The translations under genes and the position numbers were made by a program. 64,000 nucleotides of DNA from Heterodontus francisci (taxonomy: Eukaryota). The notes beneath the pieces were generated by a model. That model made no database searches. It worked only from the letters and a program-made list of their open reading frames with translations, and was not told the DNA's origin. This document shows, in pieces, positions 2,655-62,098 of the stretch (position 1 is its first letter; each line of letters opens with the position of its first letter). The DNA lies in the NCBI RefSeq assembly GCF_036365525.1, contig NC_090387.1:18445766-18509765 (forward strand). The letters run 5' to 3'.

Positions 2655-2735
2655 GTACTCTTCTTCATTGGATTCTGTGAACGATTCGTCGAAGATAAGA
2701 TACAACAGTTTGTAGACTTGTGCTCCGTGAGCAAT
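2655..2735 (+). CDS. TMEM67: meckelin/TMEM67-like exon (81 nt) [27 protein letters not shown]
   Basis: tttttgtag acceptor, gtgagt donor; matches meckelin [21 protein letters not shown]. Confidence 0.92.
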
Positions 2736-3819
2736 GTGAGTATCCAGCAACGCACTTCTCTGCAGCTATCCTGAGAGTGGCCCAGTTACTAGACAGATAC
2801 TGACTAAGATAAGGAAAGGAATCTTTCCACTGACTCAGTGGTGTGGGACTAAGCCACAGCATCTGAAAGGTTCCCTTGGTCTTTGCTGAGATGCTGATTT
2901 CAGCCAAGGCACCATCTAAAAATAAAACGGGTCAGGGTACCCATCCCAAACTGCTACCCAGTAACCCCTGCTGGAAAATGTGAGGGTGTGTTTGGGAATG
3001 GCCATTCACAGTTACGTTGCTTGCTGAAACTGGTGAGGAATGGCCACTGGGGAGAGGGACTGGAAGGCGGTCAGTGTCGGAGGGGCTGCACCCTAACAGA
3101 GTACGGACCTTTTGGAGAGCAGTGGGGAAAATTGGTCACACAGAAGAAAAGTACCACAAGTTGGCTTTCTGACCGTGATTTTGGAGAGGAACTGTGGGAA
3201 AAATTCCAAGGAATAGATTCCAAACCTACAGACAAAGATGGAAGGAAAATTACTCCCAAGGATAGACAGAAAAGACCAGGCCCATTGCTGATCTGCTAAT
3301 CATAGGCCATTCTCTGTCACATCGTATGACTTTGAACCCAAGGGAGTTTGGGTTGGAGAATTGGGCTTGCAGTGCTTTATCCCTGTCTCCGACCCATACT
3401 CGCTGCCAGTGTGGCTTTCCCTGGAAGTGCAGAATCATGGAATAACCTCTGAAAAGTCCCCGCTATGCTTGTTCCACCTAGGATGAATAGCCAAGAAGCT
3501 ACTGCAAAAGAGAAGTTATTAAACAGCCTAATTTTATTTTCTCTTTCCCTTCTAATCACTTTGCATTCTGACCTTTTTTTCTTGAATCCCATTTTTAGAT
3601 TTCTTTTCTCCTCCCTTGCTCCTGTTATGCATACTATTTTTCTATCAGTGTCATTCTTAACTAGCTGCTCGCCATTGGATGAAACTCCCTAACTTGTTTG
3701 TCCCTGTAATTTTTTCAAATTTCACTGAAAGAAATGTCAGAATAGAAACATCAACATCAGTTTCTGTCATGTCTGTCTCCGAAGTACGAATAATATTTAT
3801 TGAATATGATTCCATCCAG

Positions 3820-3936
3820 GTATCAGTCTTGGTCTTAATGCACAGGTGCTATGGCTACTACATCCATGGACGGTCGGTACATGGACATGCTGATATTGGC
3901 ATGGAGTCGATGTACCTCAACCTCAAGAAAGAAGAG
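3820..3936 (+). CDS. TMEM67: meckelin/TMEM67-like exon (117 nt) VSVLVLMHRCYGYYIHGRSVHGHADIGMESMYLNLKKEE
   Basis: ccatccag acceptor, gtaatc donor; hallmark GYYIHGRSVHGHAD motif (also in ORF 3679..3948). Confidence 0.95.
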
Positions 3937-4004
3937 GTAATCAAATGATGCATTTTGTGATGCTGGGATAGATTAACTTTAATAAAGTGGAATTTGCACT
4001 CAAG

Positions 4005-4315
4005 TAACATAAAAAATAGGAACAGGAGTAGGCCGTATGGCCCTTCGAACCTGTTCCACCATTCAATAAGATCATGGCCGACCTTCAACCTCAACTCCAT
4101 TTTCCCGCCTTATTCCCATATCCCTTGAATTCCCTTAAAAACAATCAATCTCAGCCTTGAATGTATTCAATGACTGACCATCCATAGCCCTCTGGGGTAG
4201 AAAATTCCAAAGATTCATGACCCTCTGGGTGAAGGAATGTCTCCTCATCTTAGTCCTAAATGGCTGGGCCCTTATCCCCAAGATGATGATCTCAAGCTCT
4301 AGACCCTCCCCTGGC
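4005..4315 (-). mobile_element. CR1 3' fragment
   Basis: FTQRVMNLWNFLP on -, plus typical 3'UTR (aggagtaggcc…cattcaataagatcatgg). Confidence 0.8.
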
Positions 4316-4702
4316 AAGAAGGTGCAGATTTTCCTGCTGCTGCCTCTGGGCCTATTTGAATACCTGGGAGCAGTGAATACAAGAAAATAAGATCGGGAGG
4401 AAATTTAAATCAGGTAAGATTTATTCTTTTTTCACTGTAAAGTGATAAAAAATTTGCACAAGCTTCCATCCAGAGGTGTGCTCTTTCCAGTCAGAATTTC
4501 CTCCATTTGGTACATCCAGGGGAAGCAATAGGCCTGGACTCAGGAACAGGAAAATCTGTAGGAGTAGGAGATGATGGTGGGTGCACGTCAGAGAGAAAAA
4601 TGATGAAGTTGATGTGATTGGGGAGGCAGAGAGGTTAATTTTGGGGAAGTGTCAGAACCACAGTGACTATGATGTTTTCTAATCTTTGACTTTTTACCAC
4701 AG

Positions 4703-59377: not shown

Positions 59378-60127
59378 TGTCATGAAAACGCGCTAGGTCG
59401 AATGATGATTTTTTTTCACCCATCGGCTGGAAACCTGAATATTAAACTGGTGGGGACGAACCGCTCAAACCTTGCAAGCTTTGAACCGGGTCTGCTGACT
59501 GTAATTATTTACATAAGCCTGAGGAGGGAGCTAGAGAGAGAGCGAACTTTCTGGAAAGAACAGAAGAAGCCTCCTTCAGTTACACAATAGAGAATTTTCT
59601 GGAAAGAGCAGACAGATACCTCCTTCAGCTACACAGGAGAGAACTTTCTGAAAAGAACAGGCAGAGACCTCCCTTGAAGCAATTCAGCTGCATTGCTGTC
59701 TCCTGGAGAACTACTGAATCAGCATCCAGCACTTCAAACCGGAAGCCTCATGACCACCAAATTCAGCCTGAAGCCAGCTGAGTCACCAACCTCCACAGAC
59801 TGTAGACCCCTTTTATTTCTCTCGACTCTAATTCAACCAATCTATCCTTCCCCACTCTGTAACTTATTTGTGTATGCGTGTGTGAAAGTTGGAGCGTAAT
59901 TTAATTATTTTTACTTAGATCTGTTTATGTACAATAAAGTTAACCTCTTTCTTTGTTAAACTTGAGAAAACCTGTCTAATTGGCTCTTTTATGATCATGG
60001 TGTATAAACAGTTAACCACTCACTGAGTTGGCAAGTATATGCACTTAAAAGGAAATAAATCTGTTGTGGTCAAACAATGAGAGGGAAAAGAGGGGAGCCG
60101 TTCAACCCCTCCTCACCCAATTGCAAA
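59378..60127 (+). mobile_element. Solo LTR (~750 bp) inserted in an L2-type 3' end
   Basis: Starts TGTCATG, flanked by a GCAG/AGCAG duplication, internal AATAAA at ~59933; host tail ttttatatagcag|ctttaacat rejoins. Confidence 0.65.
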
Positions 60128-60619
60128 GCAGCTTTAACATAAAATATCACAAGGTGCTTCACAGGAGTGTTATTAAGCCAAATTTGACGCTATGGCACAT
60201 AAGGAGATATTAGGACAGGTGACCAAAAACTTGGTCAAAGAGGTAGATTTTAAGGACCATCTTTCAAGGAGAAGAGAGAGAAGTAGAGAGAAGAAAAAAC
60301 TTAGGGAAGGAATTCCAGATCAAAAGGCCTAGGCAACTGAAGGCATGGCCACCAATGTGGGAGCAGTAAAAATTGGGAATGTGCAAGAGGCCAGAATTGG
60401 AGGAGCACAGAGAACTTGGGATGCTTGTAGTGCCGGAGAAGTTTACAGAGATATAGAGGAGTAGGGCCATGGGGGGATTTGAAAACTAGGATGATAATTT
60501 TTTAAATCGAGTTGTTGGCGGAGCCAGTGTAGTTCTGAGAGCTGTCGGGTGATGGGTGAACGGGAATTAATCCAAGTTGGGATATGGGCAAAGCATGGAG
60601 AATTAATTGTAGGAAGTAG

Positions 60620-61255
60620 TAACATAGGAAATAGGCGCAGGAGTAGGCCATTCGGCCCATCGAACCTGTTCTGCTATTCAAACAGATCATGGCTGATCAT
60701 CTATCTCGACGCCATTTTTCCCCATTATCCCCATATCCTTTGATGTCGTTAGTATTCAGAAATCTATCGATTTCTGTCTTGAACATGCTCAAAAGATTGA
60801 ACTTCCACAGCCCCCTGGGGTAGAGAATTCCAAAGATTCACCATCCTCTGAGTAAAGAAATTTCTCCTCATCTCAGTCTTAAATGGCCTGCCCCTTATTC
60901 TGCGACAGTGTAACCTTGTTCTAGACTCACCAGCCAGAGGAAACATCCTATCCACATCTACCCTGTCGGCCCTGTAAGAATTTTGTAAGTTTCAATGAGA
61001 TCACTTCTCATTCGTCGAAACTCTAGAGAATGCAGGCCTAGTTTCTGCAATCTCTCCTCATAAGACAATCCCGCCATCCCAGGGATTAGTTTGGTCAACC
61101 TCCGCTGCACTCCCTCTATGGCATCTAAATCCTTCCTTAGATAAGGAGACCAAACCTGTACACAATACTCCAGGTACGGTCTCACCAAGGCTCTGTACAA
61201 TTTCAGCACAACTTATTTACTCCTGTACTCAAATCCCCTTGCAATGAAGGCCATT
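60620..61255 (-). mobile_element. CR1 3' fragment
   Basis: ORFs 60958..61209 (YRALVRPYLEYCVQVWSP) and 60764..60955. Confidence 0.85.
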
Positions 61256-62078
61256 TGTAAAGCAGGTTATTCAATTATTTGTGAACTATTGATATACTGA
61301 GATCATCACCTGTTCATGCTTGTTTTTTGATAACTGGAATATGGTCAAAATCACATCAGTGGCAATTGAGAAAGAGTCCGCAGAGGAAGGAATGTTGATA
61401 AGTGAATACAATGCAGGATACCCACGAGAATTGGCCAGATTATTAACGGAATATTATGAGTAATGTCCCCCCACATCCCTCCCACATGTCTCAAAATGGG
61501 AACGCCTTTTGAGAGAAGGGAAGAAAACCGATGACAGCAAAAAAAGAGATTAAATGGAAGATGTGATGCTTGGTGCAACCAGCGTTATTGGTGACATAAT
61601 TGTGTAACCCTGACTAAAGTGGCAATTTGCCAAAGAATGCCCATTAAGTACAGAAGCAAAATACCCTTTTTTGTTCCAATTTCTCAGACAAGTCTTTTGT
61701 TGACCTCTATTTTACACATTCAGAAACATGAGGGGAGAATTTGTAAGTATTAACTATTGCACAGTAAATAATTAAACCCTAGCATGGACCCAACATTGAC
61801 AAGGTGACTCAAAATGACTGCTGAACTTGATCTCGTTAATAGCGCAACCTTAAGAGGCCCTGACTGGCACTGCGCTAAAATTGGTCCCCTGACGTAGTAT
61901 TTAAAAATAAATTCTTATTAAATCGATCAGGTTCTCTATCCACAGCTGCATTGATACCAGGAGCTGTGTGGGTTGGGTGTTTATCAATGGCTGACACAGT
62001 CCCTCTGTTTAAATCTCACTTTTTCACAATTCTAAGGCAACATTTTTGAATGTGGATTTGGAGACACTTTACCCTTAC

Positions 62079-62098
62079 CTTGATAACGAAGAATTCAT
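62079..62098 (-). CDS. CIBAR2: CIBAR2 exon 1 coding part, MNSSLS(R)
   Basis: aaaATGAATTCTTCGTTATCAAG|gtaagg on -; the phase-2 end fits exon 2; resembles FAM92B MNIVFSR. Confidence 0.82.

Follow-up and report, generated by a model that had tools for sequence, protein, structure and literature searches.

TMEM67 is a leading gene in Meckel, Joubert and COACH syndromes and is regarded as single-copy. A stretch of 64,000 nucleotides from the shark Heterodontus francisci (NC_090387.1, positions 18,445,766 to 18,509,765; hereafter, the window) carries a gene of the meckelin family beside one of the FAM92 type, raising the question of whether the former is the shark's TMEM67 or a second meckelin and, if the latter, what a second meckelin might do. 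A first-pass annotation, made from the letters alone, had favoured a second copy paired with CIBAR2.

Two genes arranged tail-to-tail

The meckelin-like gene occupies the + strand with seven exons and six introns, all of them GT-AG (6/6), and its joined frame is open over 248 aa, as the clean splicing and open frame noted at first pass had indicated. They supply the C-terminal 248 residues of the protein, through to the stop; the remaining three quarters of the gene, on its 5' side and with the ectodomain exons, lie upstream of the window. All seven match the Pfam family Meckelin (PF09773) in profile order, at positions 577-825 of 825, with E values from 3.8e-18 to 0.008; six pass the curated cut-off singly. 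The window peptide agrees with the RefSeq meckelin-like isoform X2 of H. francisci at 176/178 aa, up to the exon skipped there. Because this part of the gene holds six introns, a retrocopy origin is ruled out, as is a pseudogene, because the frame is both open and conserved. The marked difference from human TMEM67 that had been remarked on was also found: in the exon at 11465..11567, 17/34 residues are identical to human, compared with 27/34 for sturgeon TMEM67 (hand count), and the human stretch given for this comparison at first pass agrees with PDB 7FH1.

On the - strand, a FAM92/CIBAR gene runs from an ATG at 62098 to a stop at 29593 in nine exons (a candidate 6-nt micro-exon among them), with an open frame of 296 aa. 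The two stops are 10,965 bp apart, close to the 11 kb first estimated, and 4/5 of the CIBAR exons scanned match Pfam FAM92. Identity comparison makes the neighbour a FAM92 BAR-domain gene and not the CIBAR1 orthologue—91/179 aligned residues (51%) are shared with human CIBAR1, compared with 78/103 (76%) for sturgeon FAM92A (hand counts), and PMC11612972 gives 52% shared between ciBAR1 and ciBAR2. We infer the name CIBAR2 by exclusion, from frog synteny and from the report of FAM92B in the elephant shark. Between the stops, a scan of 144 frames (138 from the region separating and flanking the two genes, 6 intronic) revealed no further host gene; what scored was pieces of LINE-type reverse transcriptase, esterase and endonuclease and one sub-threshold match, and an Rfam scan gave 0 matches. 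In the ESM Atlas, only FAM92/BAR and meckelin clusters were named, and paralogues were not told apart. Upstream of CIBAR2 lies an X-box-like site; the generic pattern has 4 matches in the window where 3.8 are expected (a chance of ~0.02 per 300 bp), and the tighter pattern was drawn up after this site had been seen.

Table 1. Positions within the window of the features of the two genes
Feature	Position	Strand	Basis
Meckelin-like coding exon, first within window	2655..2735	+	PF09773 577-603
Meckelin-like coding exon	3820..3936	+	PF09773 604-642; 100% to H. francisci meckelin-like P0002
Meckelin-like coding exon	4703..4819	+	PF09773 643-680
Meckelin-like coding exon, cytoplasmic helical region	7272..7376	+	PF09773 692-717
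Meckelin-like coding exon, cited at first pass	11465..11567	+	PF09773 718-751
Meckelin-like coding exon, final membrane segments; skipped in RefSeq isoform X2	13793..13935	+	Pfam, isoform comparison
Meckelin-like terminal coding exon with stop codon	18547..18627	+	PF09773 800-825
Candidate poly(A) signals of meckelin-like gene, two AATAAA hexamers	19992..20030	+	Sequence motif
CIBAR2 last coding exon, acidic tail and stop; second in-frame acceptor at 29694	29593..29733	-	Part of open 296-aa frame
CIBAR2 coding exon downstream of BAR domain	31575..31673	-	Part of open 296-aa frame; without Pfam match
CIBAR2 BAR-domain exon	33435..33548	-	Pfam FAM92
CIBAR2 BAR-domain exon	34014..34118	-	Pfam FAM92
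Candidate CIBAR2 6-nt micro-exon, long pyrimidine tract and consensus donor	38017..38022	-	Inferred; one of two candidates
CIBAR2 BAR-domain exon	46751..46852	-	Pfam FAM92
CIBAR2 BAR-domain exon	49797..49865	-	Alignment to sturgeon FAM92A
CIBAR2 BAR-domain exon 2	52763..52997	-	Pfam FAM92
CIBAR2 first coding exon, ATG at 62098	62079..62098	-	Part of open 296-aa frame
RFX X-box-like site, 127 bp upstream of CIBAR2 ATG	62225..62238	-	Pattern match

Origin and distribution of the second meckelin

Gnathostome TMEM67 and the paralogue form separate clades, each with support of 1.0 in a FastTree tree of 91 rows (from which nine gene models had been dropped as fused, partial or chimeric) and an SH-aLRT of 100 in a quick IQ-TREE tree of 30 rows, and the shark protein falls outside the bony-vertebrate TMEM67 group. 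That it is merely a diverged shark orthologue of TMEM67 might be argued from the shared Pfam family and fold and from the fact that no second meckelin was seen in H. francisci; however, AU tests reject the gene as orthologue or pro-orthologue (p<1e-46 under LG+F+G4, p<1e-36 under LG+C20), and the full-length protein has 55-58% identity to basal fish and amphibian paralogues and 44-45% to canonical proteins, which themselves have 63-72% to sturgeon TMEM67. Nor is its neighbour in the window an 8q22-type gene such as CIBAR1 or PDP1; the gene adjoins a FAM92 gene of the other kind. The trees and AU tests thus refute orthology, whose residual probability we consider negligible, and the comparison of sequences confirms a TMEM67 paralogue older than the split between sharks and bony fishes, as had been proposed. 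Across the window exons, shark-like and canonical proteins are 58% identical (77% among canonical proteins); taken alone, the 248 aa have 61-64% identity to bony-vertebrate paralogues, slightly above the 57-60% to canonical proteins.

In the 30-row tree, the vertebrate copies group together (support 100) apart from a hemichordate and distant outgroups, and the duplication predates the jawed-vertebrate radiation and postdates the invertebrate split. The best tree joins lamprey to the paralogue (support 89-91); lamprey outside both copies has a p-AU of 0.019 under LG and 0.098 under LG+C20, grouping with canonical TMEM67 is not rejected under any model used, and fixed differences (2/15 paralogue-derived and 1/9 canonical-derived states in lamprey) leave its placement undecided by count. 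Frog has meckelin and FAM92 pairs on scaffolds of two sets, one carrying 8q22-type genes and the other 16q-type genes. On Xenopus scaffold 227593, FAM92B(+) is followed at 7.6 kb by a 'TMEM67'(-) and then by KIAA0513, FBXO31, JPH3 and KLHDC4, which we take to be human 16q genes; the pairing with CIBAR2 thus holds in frog, in the same tail-to-tail layout. The other frog TMEM67 sits by RBM12B, FSBP and KIAA1429, and the human 8q22 order includes FAM92A1, RBM12B and PDP1 near TMEM67 (PMC6570965). In fused gene models, too, canonical TMEM67 is joined with FAM92A (sturgeon) or with a PP2C/PDP gene (a goby). Given this pre-gnathostome duplication within a duplicated block, the gene is likely, as suggested at first pass, an ohnologue from vertebrate whole-genome doubling (1R or 2R).

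The accompanying idea that the copy was a relic of cartilaginous fishes fails—we found it in sharks, chimaera, rays, bichir, gar, sturgeon, eels, herring, amphibians, turtles, crocodiles and squamates, and homologue searches recovered both meckelins in at least 19 bony-vertebrate species. The window gene belongs to the 'meckelin-like' group of RefSeq/UniRef (sharks, amphibians, reptiles, basal fishes), whose names are automatic. Database names were discarded as a guide to clade because proteins are mislabelled on both sides: plain 'meckelin' or 'MKS3' is applied to paralogues of X. laevis, Amia, Bombina, Microcaecilia, Atractosteus and Polypterus, and one canonical protein, from Lacerta, bears the '-like' label. 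We found no study devoted to the 'meckelin-like' paralogue in the literature, in keeping with its description as largely uncharacterised; neither the catshark transcriptome paper (PMC13188829, 8 files) nor the elephant shark paper mentions meckelin/TMEM67 in its supplements, and nor do 3 of the 5 files of PMC8302630.

A conserved core and a fast-evolving ectodomain

A model of the Heptranchias orthologue (pLDDT 87.7) had 7FH1 as its sole PDB match at E<=0.001 (E 2e-71, TM 0.72-0.76), and P0002 matched 7FH1 with E 1.8e-219; a crocodile-led 6-row alignment gave a fold model with a pLDDT of 33. The Heptranchias model thus shows a predicted meckelin fold with CRD, beta-rich domain and seven membrane segments, and the signal peptide and coiled-coil layout of TMEM67 (PF09773; 7FH1) are likewise common to both, in a protein of ~45% identity that is ~65 aa shorter. 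Stem lengths show that the paralogue's ectodomain evolved about twice as fast (0.76, compared with 0.31 in canonical proteins), whereas the membrane core was conserved (0.35 and 0.28, respectively). Consistent with this, the C-terminus is conserved, and conserved human disease positions are kept at 22/24 in the membrane and cytoplasmic part compared with 187/279 sites in the background (Fisher p 0.011 without correction, as one of four tests) and at only 7/15 in the CRD.

Canonical proteins have 22 CRD cysteines (11 disulfides) in 18/19 cases, whereas shark, fish and amphibian copies of the paralogue have 20 in 26/28 and reptile copies 10 in 8/8; among chondrichthyans, H. francisci has 18 and nine others 20. 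Compared with TMEM67, the paralogue lacks C253, C268 and the interface residues G250, W290 and W296, and in reptile copies about half of the CRD is missing, and with it the contacts of the CRD-CRD dimer (W112, I140-G142, C170 and R172). At ADAMTS9 site 2 (N342/F343), N is present in 9/10 and F in 10/10 shark copies; at site 1, F332 is replaced by L in sharks and is F in 10/12 amphibian copies, and K331 varies even among canonical proteins. Wnt5a binding by TMEM67 is lost when any one of Q376, R440, M252 or L349 is mutated (PMC8565905); the first two are kept in 10/10 shark copies, and the others are conservatively changed.

Expression in frog and a proposed role in multiciliated cells

Xenopus epidermis is a main motile-cilia model. 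In the supplements of PMC5245798, from which the tabulated frog figures represent one of three comparisons and where we assigned the paralogue by position (the second of two 'TMEM67' rows), multicilin raises the FAM92B-linked 'TMEM67' from 101 to 5588 counts (55x, padj 6e-8), whereas the 8q22-type TMEM67 is not induced (648 to 872 counts, 1.35x, padj 0.75). At 3 h, the former is up 25-fold (p 0.018, padj 1, non-significant once corrected). Induction extends to FAM92B (42x and 61x) and to genes of the MKS module—MKS1 (10x), B9D2 (15x), CC2D2A (12x), TMEM216 (8.6x) and TMEM231 (3.6x)—with FAM92A1 at 0.54x and 0.80x. The FAM92B-linked 'TMEM67' is on the core list for multiciliated cells (MCCs), is almost silent where these are lacking, and is also in the Rfx2-knockdown list. 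In MCC-rich tissue, its expression is about six times that of canonical TMEM67, which remains expressed at 872 counts in the explants. These data suggest that the paralogue is the meckelin copy turned on in cells with hundreds of beating cilia, and co-induction with MKS genes would predict its localisation to the MKS-module transition zone.

Taken as a whole, the evidence is probably best explained by a meckelin-2 that acts as the transition-zone meckelin of MCCs and was duplicated together with the CIBAR block. A DNA-level duplication, probably through early vertebrate genome doubling, would have yielded TMEM67 and meckelin-2 alongside CIBAR1 and CIBAR2. In MCCs, meckelin-2 would replace or outnumber TMEM67 in the MKS/B9 gate at hundreds of basal bodies, with the membrane-anchoring role retained and the ectodomain's part as Wnt5a/ROR2 co-receptor relaxed. 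Its site beside CIBAR2 would come from the duplication of the block and from common Rfx/Foxj1/multicilin control rather than indicate a proven complex, and the shark gene presumably acts likewise. ciBAR2 is restricted to MCCs in mouse and human, according to PMC11612972. In lineages without the paralogue (mammals, apparently birds, most teleosts), TMEM67 would serve all cilia. Human and mouse MCCs function without the paralogue, and mouse Tmem67 is required for ependymal motile cilia (PMC12119803), so the paralogue has been dispensable over evolutionary time.

In a different reading, which we judge unlikely, a true paralogue is a relaxed and for the most part redundant spare heading for loss, induced in MCCs as a by-product of the CIBAR2 regulatory region. 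Several apparent losses fit it: no copy from birds, mammals or euteleosts was found among 104 homologue matches, zebrafish has a single tmem67 (PMC9280682), and FAM92B is listed without the paralogue in one X. laevis homeologous region. KIAA0513 is induced 9-11x on the paralogue's scaffold and stands at 0.93x on the homeologue (6 h), evidence of a neighbourhood effect, and the CRD is eroded, furthest among the chondrichthyans in H. francisci itself. Against a spare, however, stand open frames in 97/158 named matches, from chimaera through snakes, window-peptide identities of 80% to chimaera and 95% to Heptranchias, the preferential retention of core disease positions and the high expression in MCC-rich tissue.

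An obligate physical module of meckelin-2 and CIBAR2, parallel to one of TMEM67 and CIBAR1, would account for genes that adjoin in shark and frog and are co-induced in frog MCCs, for the loss of FAM92B reported in teleosts (PMC3964593 Table IX.6), and for the gathering of Fam92b on docked basal bodies of Xenopus MCCs described in PMC12219219. Yet mammals keep CIBAR2 without the paralogue, the partners named for CIBAR in the available parts of PMC11612972 and PMC12219219 are Cby1, Dzip1 and Rsg1, not meckelin, and frog FAM92A1 lies ~215 kb from the TMEM67 of the 8q22-type scaffold, so tight linkage is unnecessary for that pair. Of the parallel module envisaged at first pass, co-regulation therefore survives, whereas an obligate pair is quite improbable. 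Even slimmer is the chance that cartilaginous fishes, in a reversal of the mammalian case, lost canonical TMEM67, so that the paralogue would be their only meckelin and serve all cilia. Three homologue searches recovered the paralogue in at least 13 chondrichthyan species with no canonical copy among the matches listed (41 rows, the best 120 of 1053, and 104 rows), and the sole lamprey meckelin type seen tends towards the paralogue clade; however, every query was itself a paralogue, and a canonical shark protein could easily rank below the best 120. RefSeq calls these shark proteins '-like', and annotated tmem67 genes presumably exist in shark genomes.

The preferred reading, an MCC meckelin-2, can be extended, though only tentatively. 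Most non-mammalian vertebrate lineages may possess two kinds of ciliary gate, one with TMEM67 for primary cilia and Wnt signalling and one in MCCs with a CIBAR2-co-regulated paralogue that has shed the Wnt side, most clearly in reptiles. In TMEM67, a C-terminal fragment acts for the transition zone, whereas Wnt signalling is the task of the full-length form (PMC12119803); jobs that mammals split by ADAMTS9 cleavage might then be divided between two genes, and the 'TMEM67' of the Xenopus MCC list would not be the human orthologue. If dominant in frog MCCs, the second meckelin would amount to the exchange of a transition-zone subunit by cell type and, if so, would provide a natural separation-of-function variant bearing on the debate over meckelin's ciliary and Wnt roles. 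As the published core MCC list gives the paralogue the human TMEM67 identifier, frog tmem67 work—knock-downs, patient-variant tests, cross-species lists—may hit the wrong gene or be masked.

Such a division has parallels. CIBAR1 and CIBAR2 (FAM92A/B), from the same duplicated block, likewise comprise one broad and one MCC-restricted copy at the ciliary base, although CIBAR2 persists in mammals, where the second meckelin was not found. CEP63 and DEUP1 also include a paralogue specialised for multiciliated cells, according to PMC6397843; DEUP1, however, works in the amplification of basal bodies and has been retained in mammals, whereas meckelin-2 would be a membrane subunit of the transition zone.

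A meckelin paralogue facing a FAM92 gene

The window consists of AT-rich vertebrate DNA in which LINE and SINE fragments are numerous, and it carries two convergent genes, one meckelin-like and the other of the FAM92 BAR-domain family; this pairing, proposed in the first-pass annotation, is borne out by open frames, GT-AG introns, and Pfam matches. Each of the seven meckelin-like exons matches the Pfam Meckelin profile, in order, from position 577 to its end at 825. The facing stops lie 10,965 bp apart, and between them we found no additional host gene and no RNA family. One exon is 100% identical to the RefSeq “meckelin-like isoform X2” of Heterodontus francisci, and the window peptide agrees with that isoform in 176 of the 178 residues preceding an exon that the isoform skips. 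Skipping this exon shifts the frame and removes both the final membrane segments and the conserved C-terminus.

Features of the window, with positions in window coordinates
Feature	Position	Strand	Description
Meckelin-like gene	2655 to 18627	+	Seven exons, GT-AG introns, open 248-residue frame to stop
Exon absent from RefSeq isoform X2 of H. francisci	13793-13935	+	
FAM92 BAR-domain gene (CIBAR2)	62098 to 29593	-	Nine exons, counting the candidate micro-exon; 296 residues
Candidate micro-exon of CIBAR2	38017-38022	-	6 nt; long pyrimidine tract and consensus donor
X-box-like site	127 bp upstream of CIBAR2 start codon		
Additional RFX-like sites	2392-2406, 1632-1646, 13360-13374, 32115-32128		Introns of both genes
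Broken retroelement copies	35188-36354, 39137-42550, 24577-25900	+	Reverse-transcriptase, esterase, endonuclease domains
Retroelement-like copy	16212-17700	+	RT-like by eye; no Pfam match
Perfect inverted repeat	53513-53642		CIBAR2 intron 1; 64-bp arms, 2-bp spacer
Short tandem array	28788-28959		35 bp x 4.9, 97%
Short tandem array	59539-59672		49 bp x 2.8

The FAM92 gene is assigned as CIBAR2 (FAM92B) by exclusion and synteny, because it diverges from human CIBAR1 (FAM92A; 51% identity over 179 aligned residues, hand count), two paralogues are described for the family (PMC12219219), and FAM92B is present in elephant shark (PMC3964593). Sturgeon FAM92A shows 76% identity to human CIBAR1 over 103 residues (hand count), and mammalian ciBAR1 and ciBAR2 share 52% (PMC11612972). 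The canonical block at human 8q22 comprises FAM92A1, RBM12B, TMEM67, and PDP1 (PMC6570965); canonical TMEM67 is joined to FAM92A in a mis-fused sturgeon gene model, and in a goby model it is joined to a PDP-type phosphatase. Nothing in the analysis supports a physical complex between the second meckelin and CIBAR2.

The X-box-like site upstream of CIBAR2 is suggestive only as a putative RFX control element, because the tighter pattern was post hoc; the looser RFX pattern gave six matches in the window (one palindrome counted twice) versus 1.3 expected. The inverted repeat in CIBAR2 intron 1, which resembles a folded-back piece of a repeat present elsewhere in the window, could be real or an assembly artefact.

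Origin and species range of the paralogue

Both jawed-vertebrate clades, meckelin-like and canonical (TMEM67 proper), were fully supported in trees rooted with one named hemichordate and distant representatives, and the window peptide was placed with Heterodontus and Heptranchias inside the meckelin-like clade. Two other positions for the shark gene, as a TMEM67 orthologue and as sister of both bony-vertebrate copies, were each rejected by the AU test (p<1e-46 and p<1e-36 under two models); the shark protein thus lies outside the TMEM67 orthologues. The lamprey meckelin fell within the meckelin-like clade in the best trees (support 89-91), a position that would place the split at the first genome doubling, which cyclostomes share under the scheme of PMC8302630. 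Two alternative placements are also possible: lamprey outside both clades gave p values of 0.019 under LG and 0.098 under LG+C20, and lamprey joined to the canonical clade gave 0.36 and 0.098, respectively.

Homologue searches returned at least 164 distinct proteins, 158 of them named; assigned by score ratio against two panels, the 158 named matches listed divide into 97 meckelin-like and 61 canonical or outgroup proteins. Members of the former class occur in 13 cartilaginous fishes, bichirs, sturgeons, paddlefish, gars, and bowfin; among teleosts in eels, tarpons, herring, and shad; and among tetrapods in caecilians, salamanders, frogs, turtles, a crocodile, lizards, and snakes. The proposal of an ohnologue kept in cartilaginous fish stands as to paralogy, on the tree and AU results, and the range extends beyond cartilaginous fish. 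Among the matches listed, 19 species have one protein in each class, the lungfish match is canonical, no coelacanth meckelin appears, and no canonical H. francisci TMEM67 appears (the relevant search comprising the best 120 of 1053). A profile that combined crocodile, turtle, herring, shad, and eel copies found again 84 of the 93 meckelin-like proteins that are named and fall within its length range (hand count), and its 104 matches include no bird, mammal, or euteleost member, an absence that applies to annotated proteins sharing exact words with the queries. Because retained ohnologues have often been lost in mammals, the finding is less of a surprise. For zebrafish, one tmem67 is reported (PMC9280682).

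In agreement with the suggestion that the gene is largely uncharacterised, no vertebrate meckelin paralogue is described in the full-text literature covered, which includes few subscription journals, nor in the passages covered of PMC6397843 and PMC4092220; databases already contain the proteins, under names that were assigned automatically and often mislead. One Eretmochelys gene model (P0051) joins the turtle's meckelin-like exons in silico to a class-C GPCR-like ectodomain (PF07562), suggesting that in turtles a gene of this kind is located upstream on that strand.

A conserved core and a remodelled ectodomain

The full Heptranchias orthologue was modelled with a pLDDT of 87.7, and human meckelin was the sole structural match of this model. 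Using domain limits and disease positions from PMC8565905, and chinchilla TMEM67 as numbering proxy (same residue as human at 72 of 75 disease positions), we found conserved disease positions kept at 22/24 in the membrane and cytoplasmic part, 8/11 in the beta-rich domain, and 7/15 in the cysteine-rich domain (CRD). At the level of sequence, then, the membrane and cytoplasmic core of the paralogue is conserved, and it is much less accelerated (stem 0.35, versus 0.28 in the canonical clade) than the ectodomain, which evolved at about twice the canonical rate (stem 0.76 versus 0.31; tailed frog tips 1.41 versus 0.65).

The meckelin-like clade lacks C253 and C268, as well as three residues near the CRD/beta-domain junction, G250, W290, and W296; nearly all copies also have altered residues at M257 and D266. 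In all eight reptile copies tested (P0050, P0052, P0054, P0061, P0016, P0074, P0087, and P0095), a shared deletion removes ~100 further CRD residues and with them the CRD-CRD dimer contacts, leaving 10 cysteines instead of 20-22. Of the ADAMTS9 sites defined in PMC12119803, site 2 is mostly kept and site 1 is altered in sharks; the shark copies retain Q376 and R440, which counts against a clean loss of Wnt5a binding. The CRD of the H. francisci protein (P0002), encoded outside the window, has 18 cysteines, two below nine other chondrichthyans, a difference that may be genuine or reflect an error in the gene model.

Induction of the presumed paralogue in frog multiciliated cells

As to function, the strongest evidence lies in the supplementary tables published by Quigley and Kintner in 2017 (PMC5245798), in which two X. 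laevis genes carry the human TMEM67 identifier; the main text of that paper nowhere mentions tmem67. One, on scaffold 34503, adjoins RBM12B, FSBP, KIAA1429, and ESRP1; the other, on scaffold 227593, lies 7.6 kb past the end of FAM92B, on the other strand, and is followed by KIAA0513, FBXO31, JPH3, and KLHDC4 (PMC5245798). The latter pair has the same arrangement as meckelin-like and CIBAR2 in the window, a tail-to-tail block conserved between shark and frog. In human, the four genes that follow are 16q23-24 genes.

The scaffold 227593 gene, assigned to the paralogue by position, rose 55-fold from tissue without to tissue with multiciliated cells (MCCs; 101 to 5588 counts, padj 6e-8), versus 648 to 872 (padj 0.75) for the scaffold 34503 gene. 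It is among the 950 core MCC genes, defined by change in three comparisons, and also appears on the list of genes shared with Rfx2 knock-down; its 3-h induction was not significant after correction (PMC5245798). FAM92B rose 42- and 61-fold, whereas FAM92A1 did not rise, and MKS1, B9D2, CC2D2A, TMEM216, and TMEM231 rose 3.6- to 15-fold (PMC5245798). This joint rise indicates that the MKS module is scaled up in MCCs and that, of the two meckelins, it is the gene in the position of the paralogue that increases along with it. We propose that the paralogue would supply the MKS/B9 gate of MCCs with its meckelin subunit, its conserved core anchoring the transition zone and its signalling ectodomain being weakened or altered, and that the shark gene may act likewise. 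Lineages lacking it would depend on TMEM67; mouse ependymal cilia require TMEM67 (PMC12119803). The interest would lie in a core ciliopathy gene having a cell-type-specific copy that a main model organism carries under the disease gene's name, and that can be tested there directly.

One caveat is that the neighbouring KIAA0513 was also multicilin-induced, 9-11x, on scaffold 227593 and not on homeologue scaffold 5765, where no meckelin is listed in the 14-kb KIAA0513-FAM92B gap in the available tables (PMC5245798). As induction is confined to the homeologue carrying the meckelin paralogue, this hints at a shared cilia enhancer lost together with it. FAM92A1-labelled genes on scaffolds 34503 and 62229 adjoin ESRP1, with TMEM67 ~215 kb away; this differs from the human order and reflects either a rearrangement or a further FAM92 copy.
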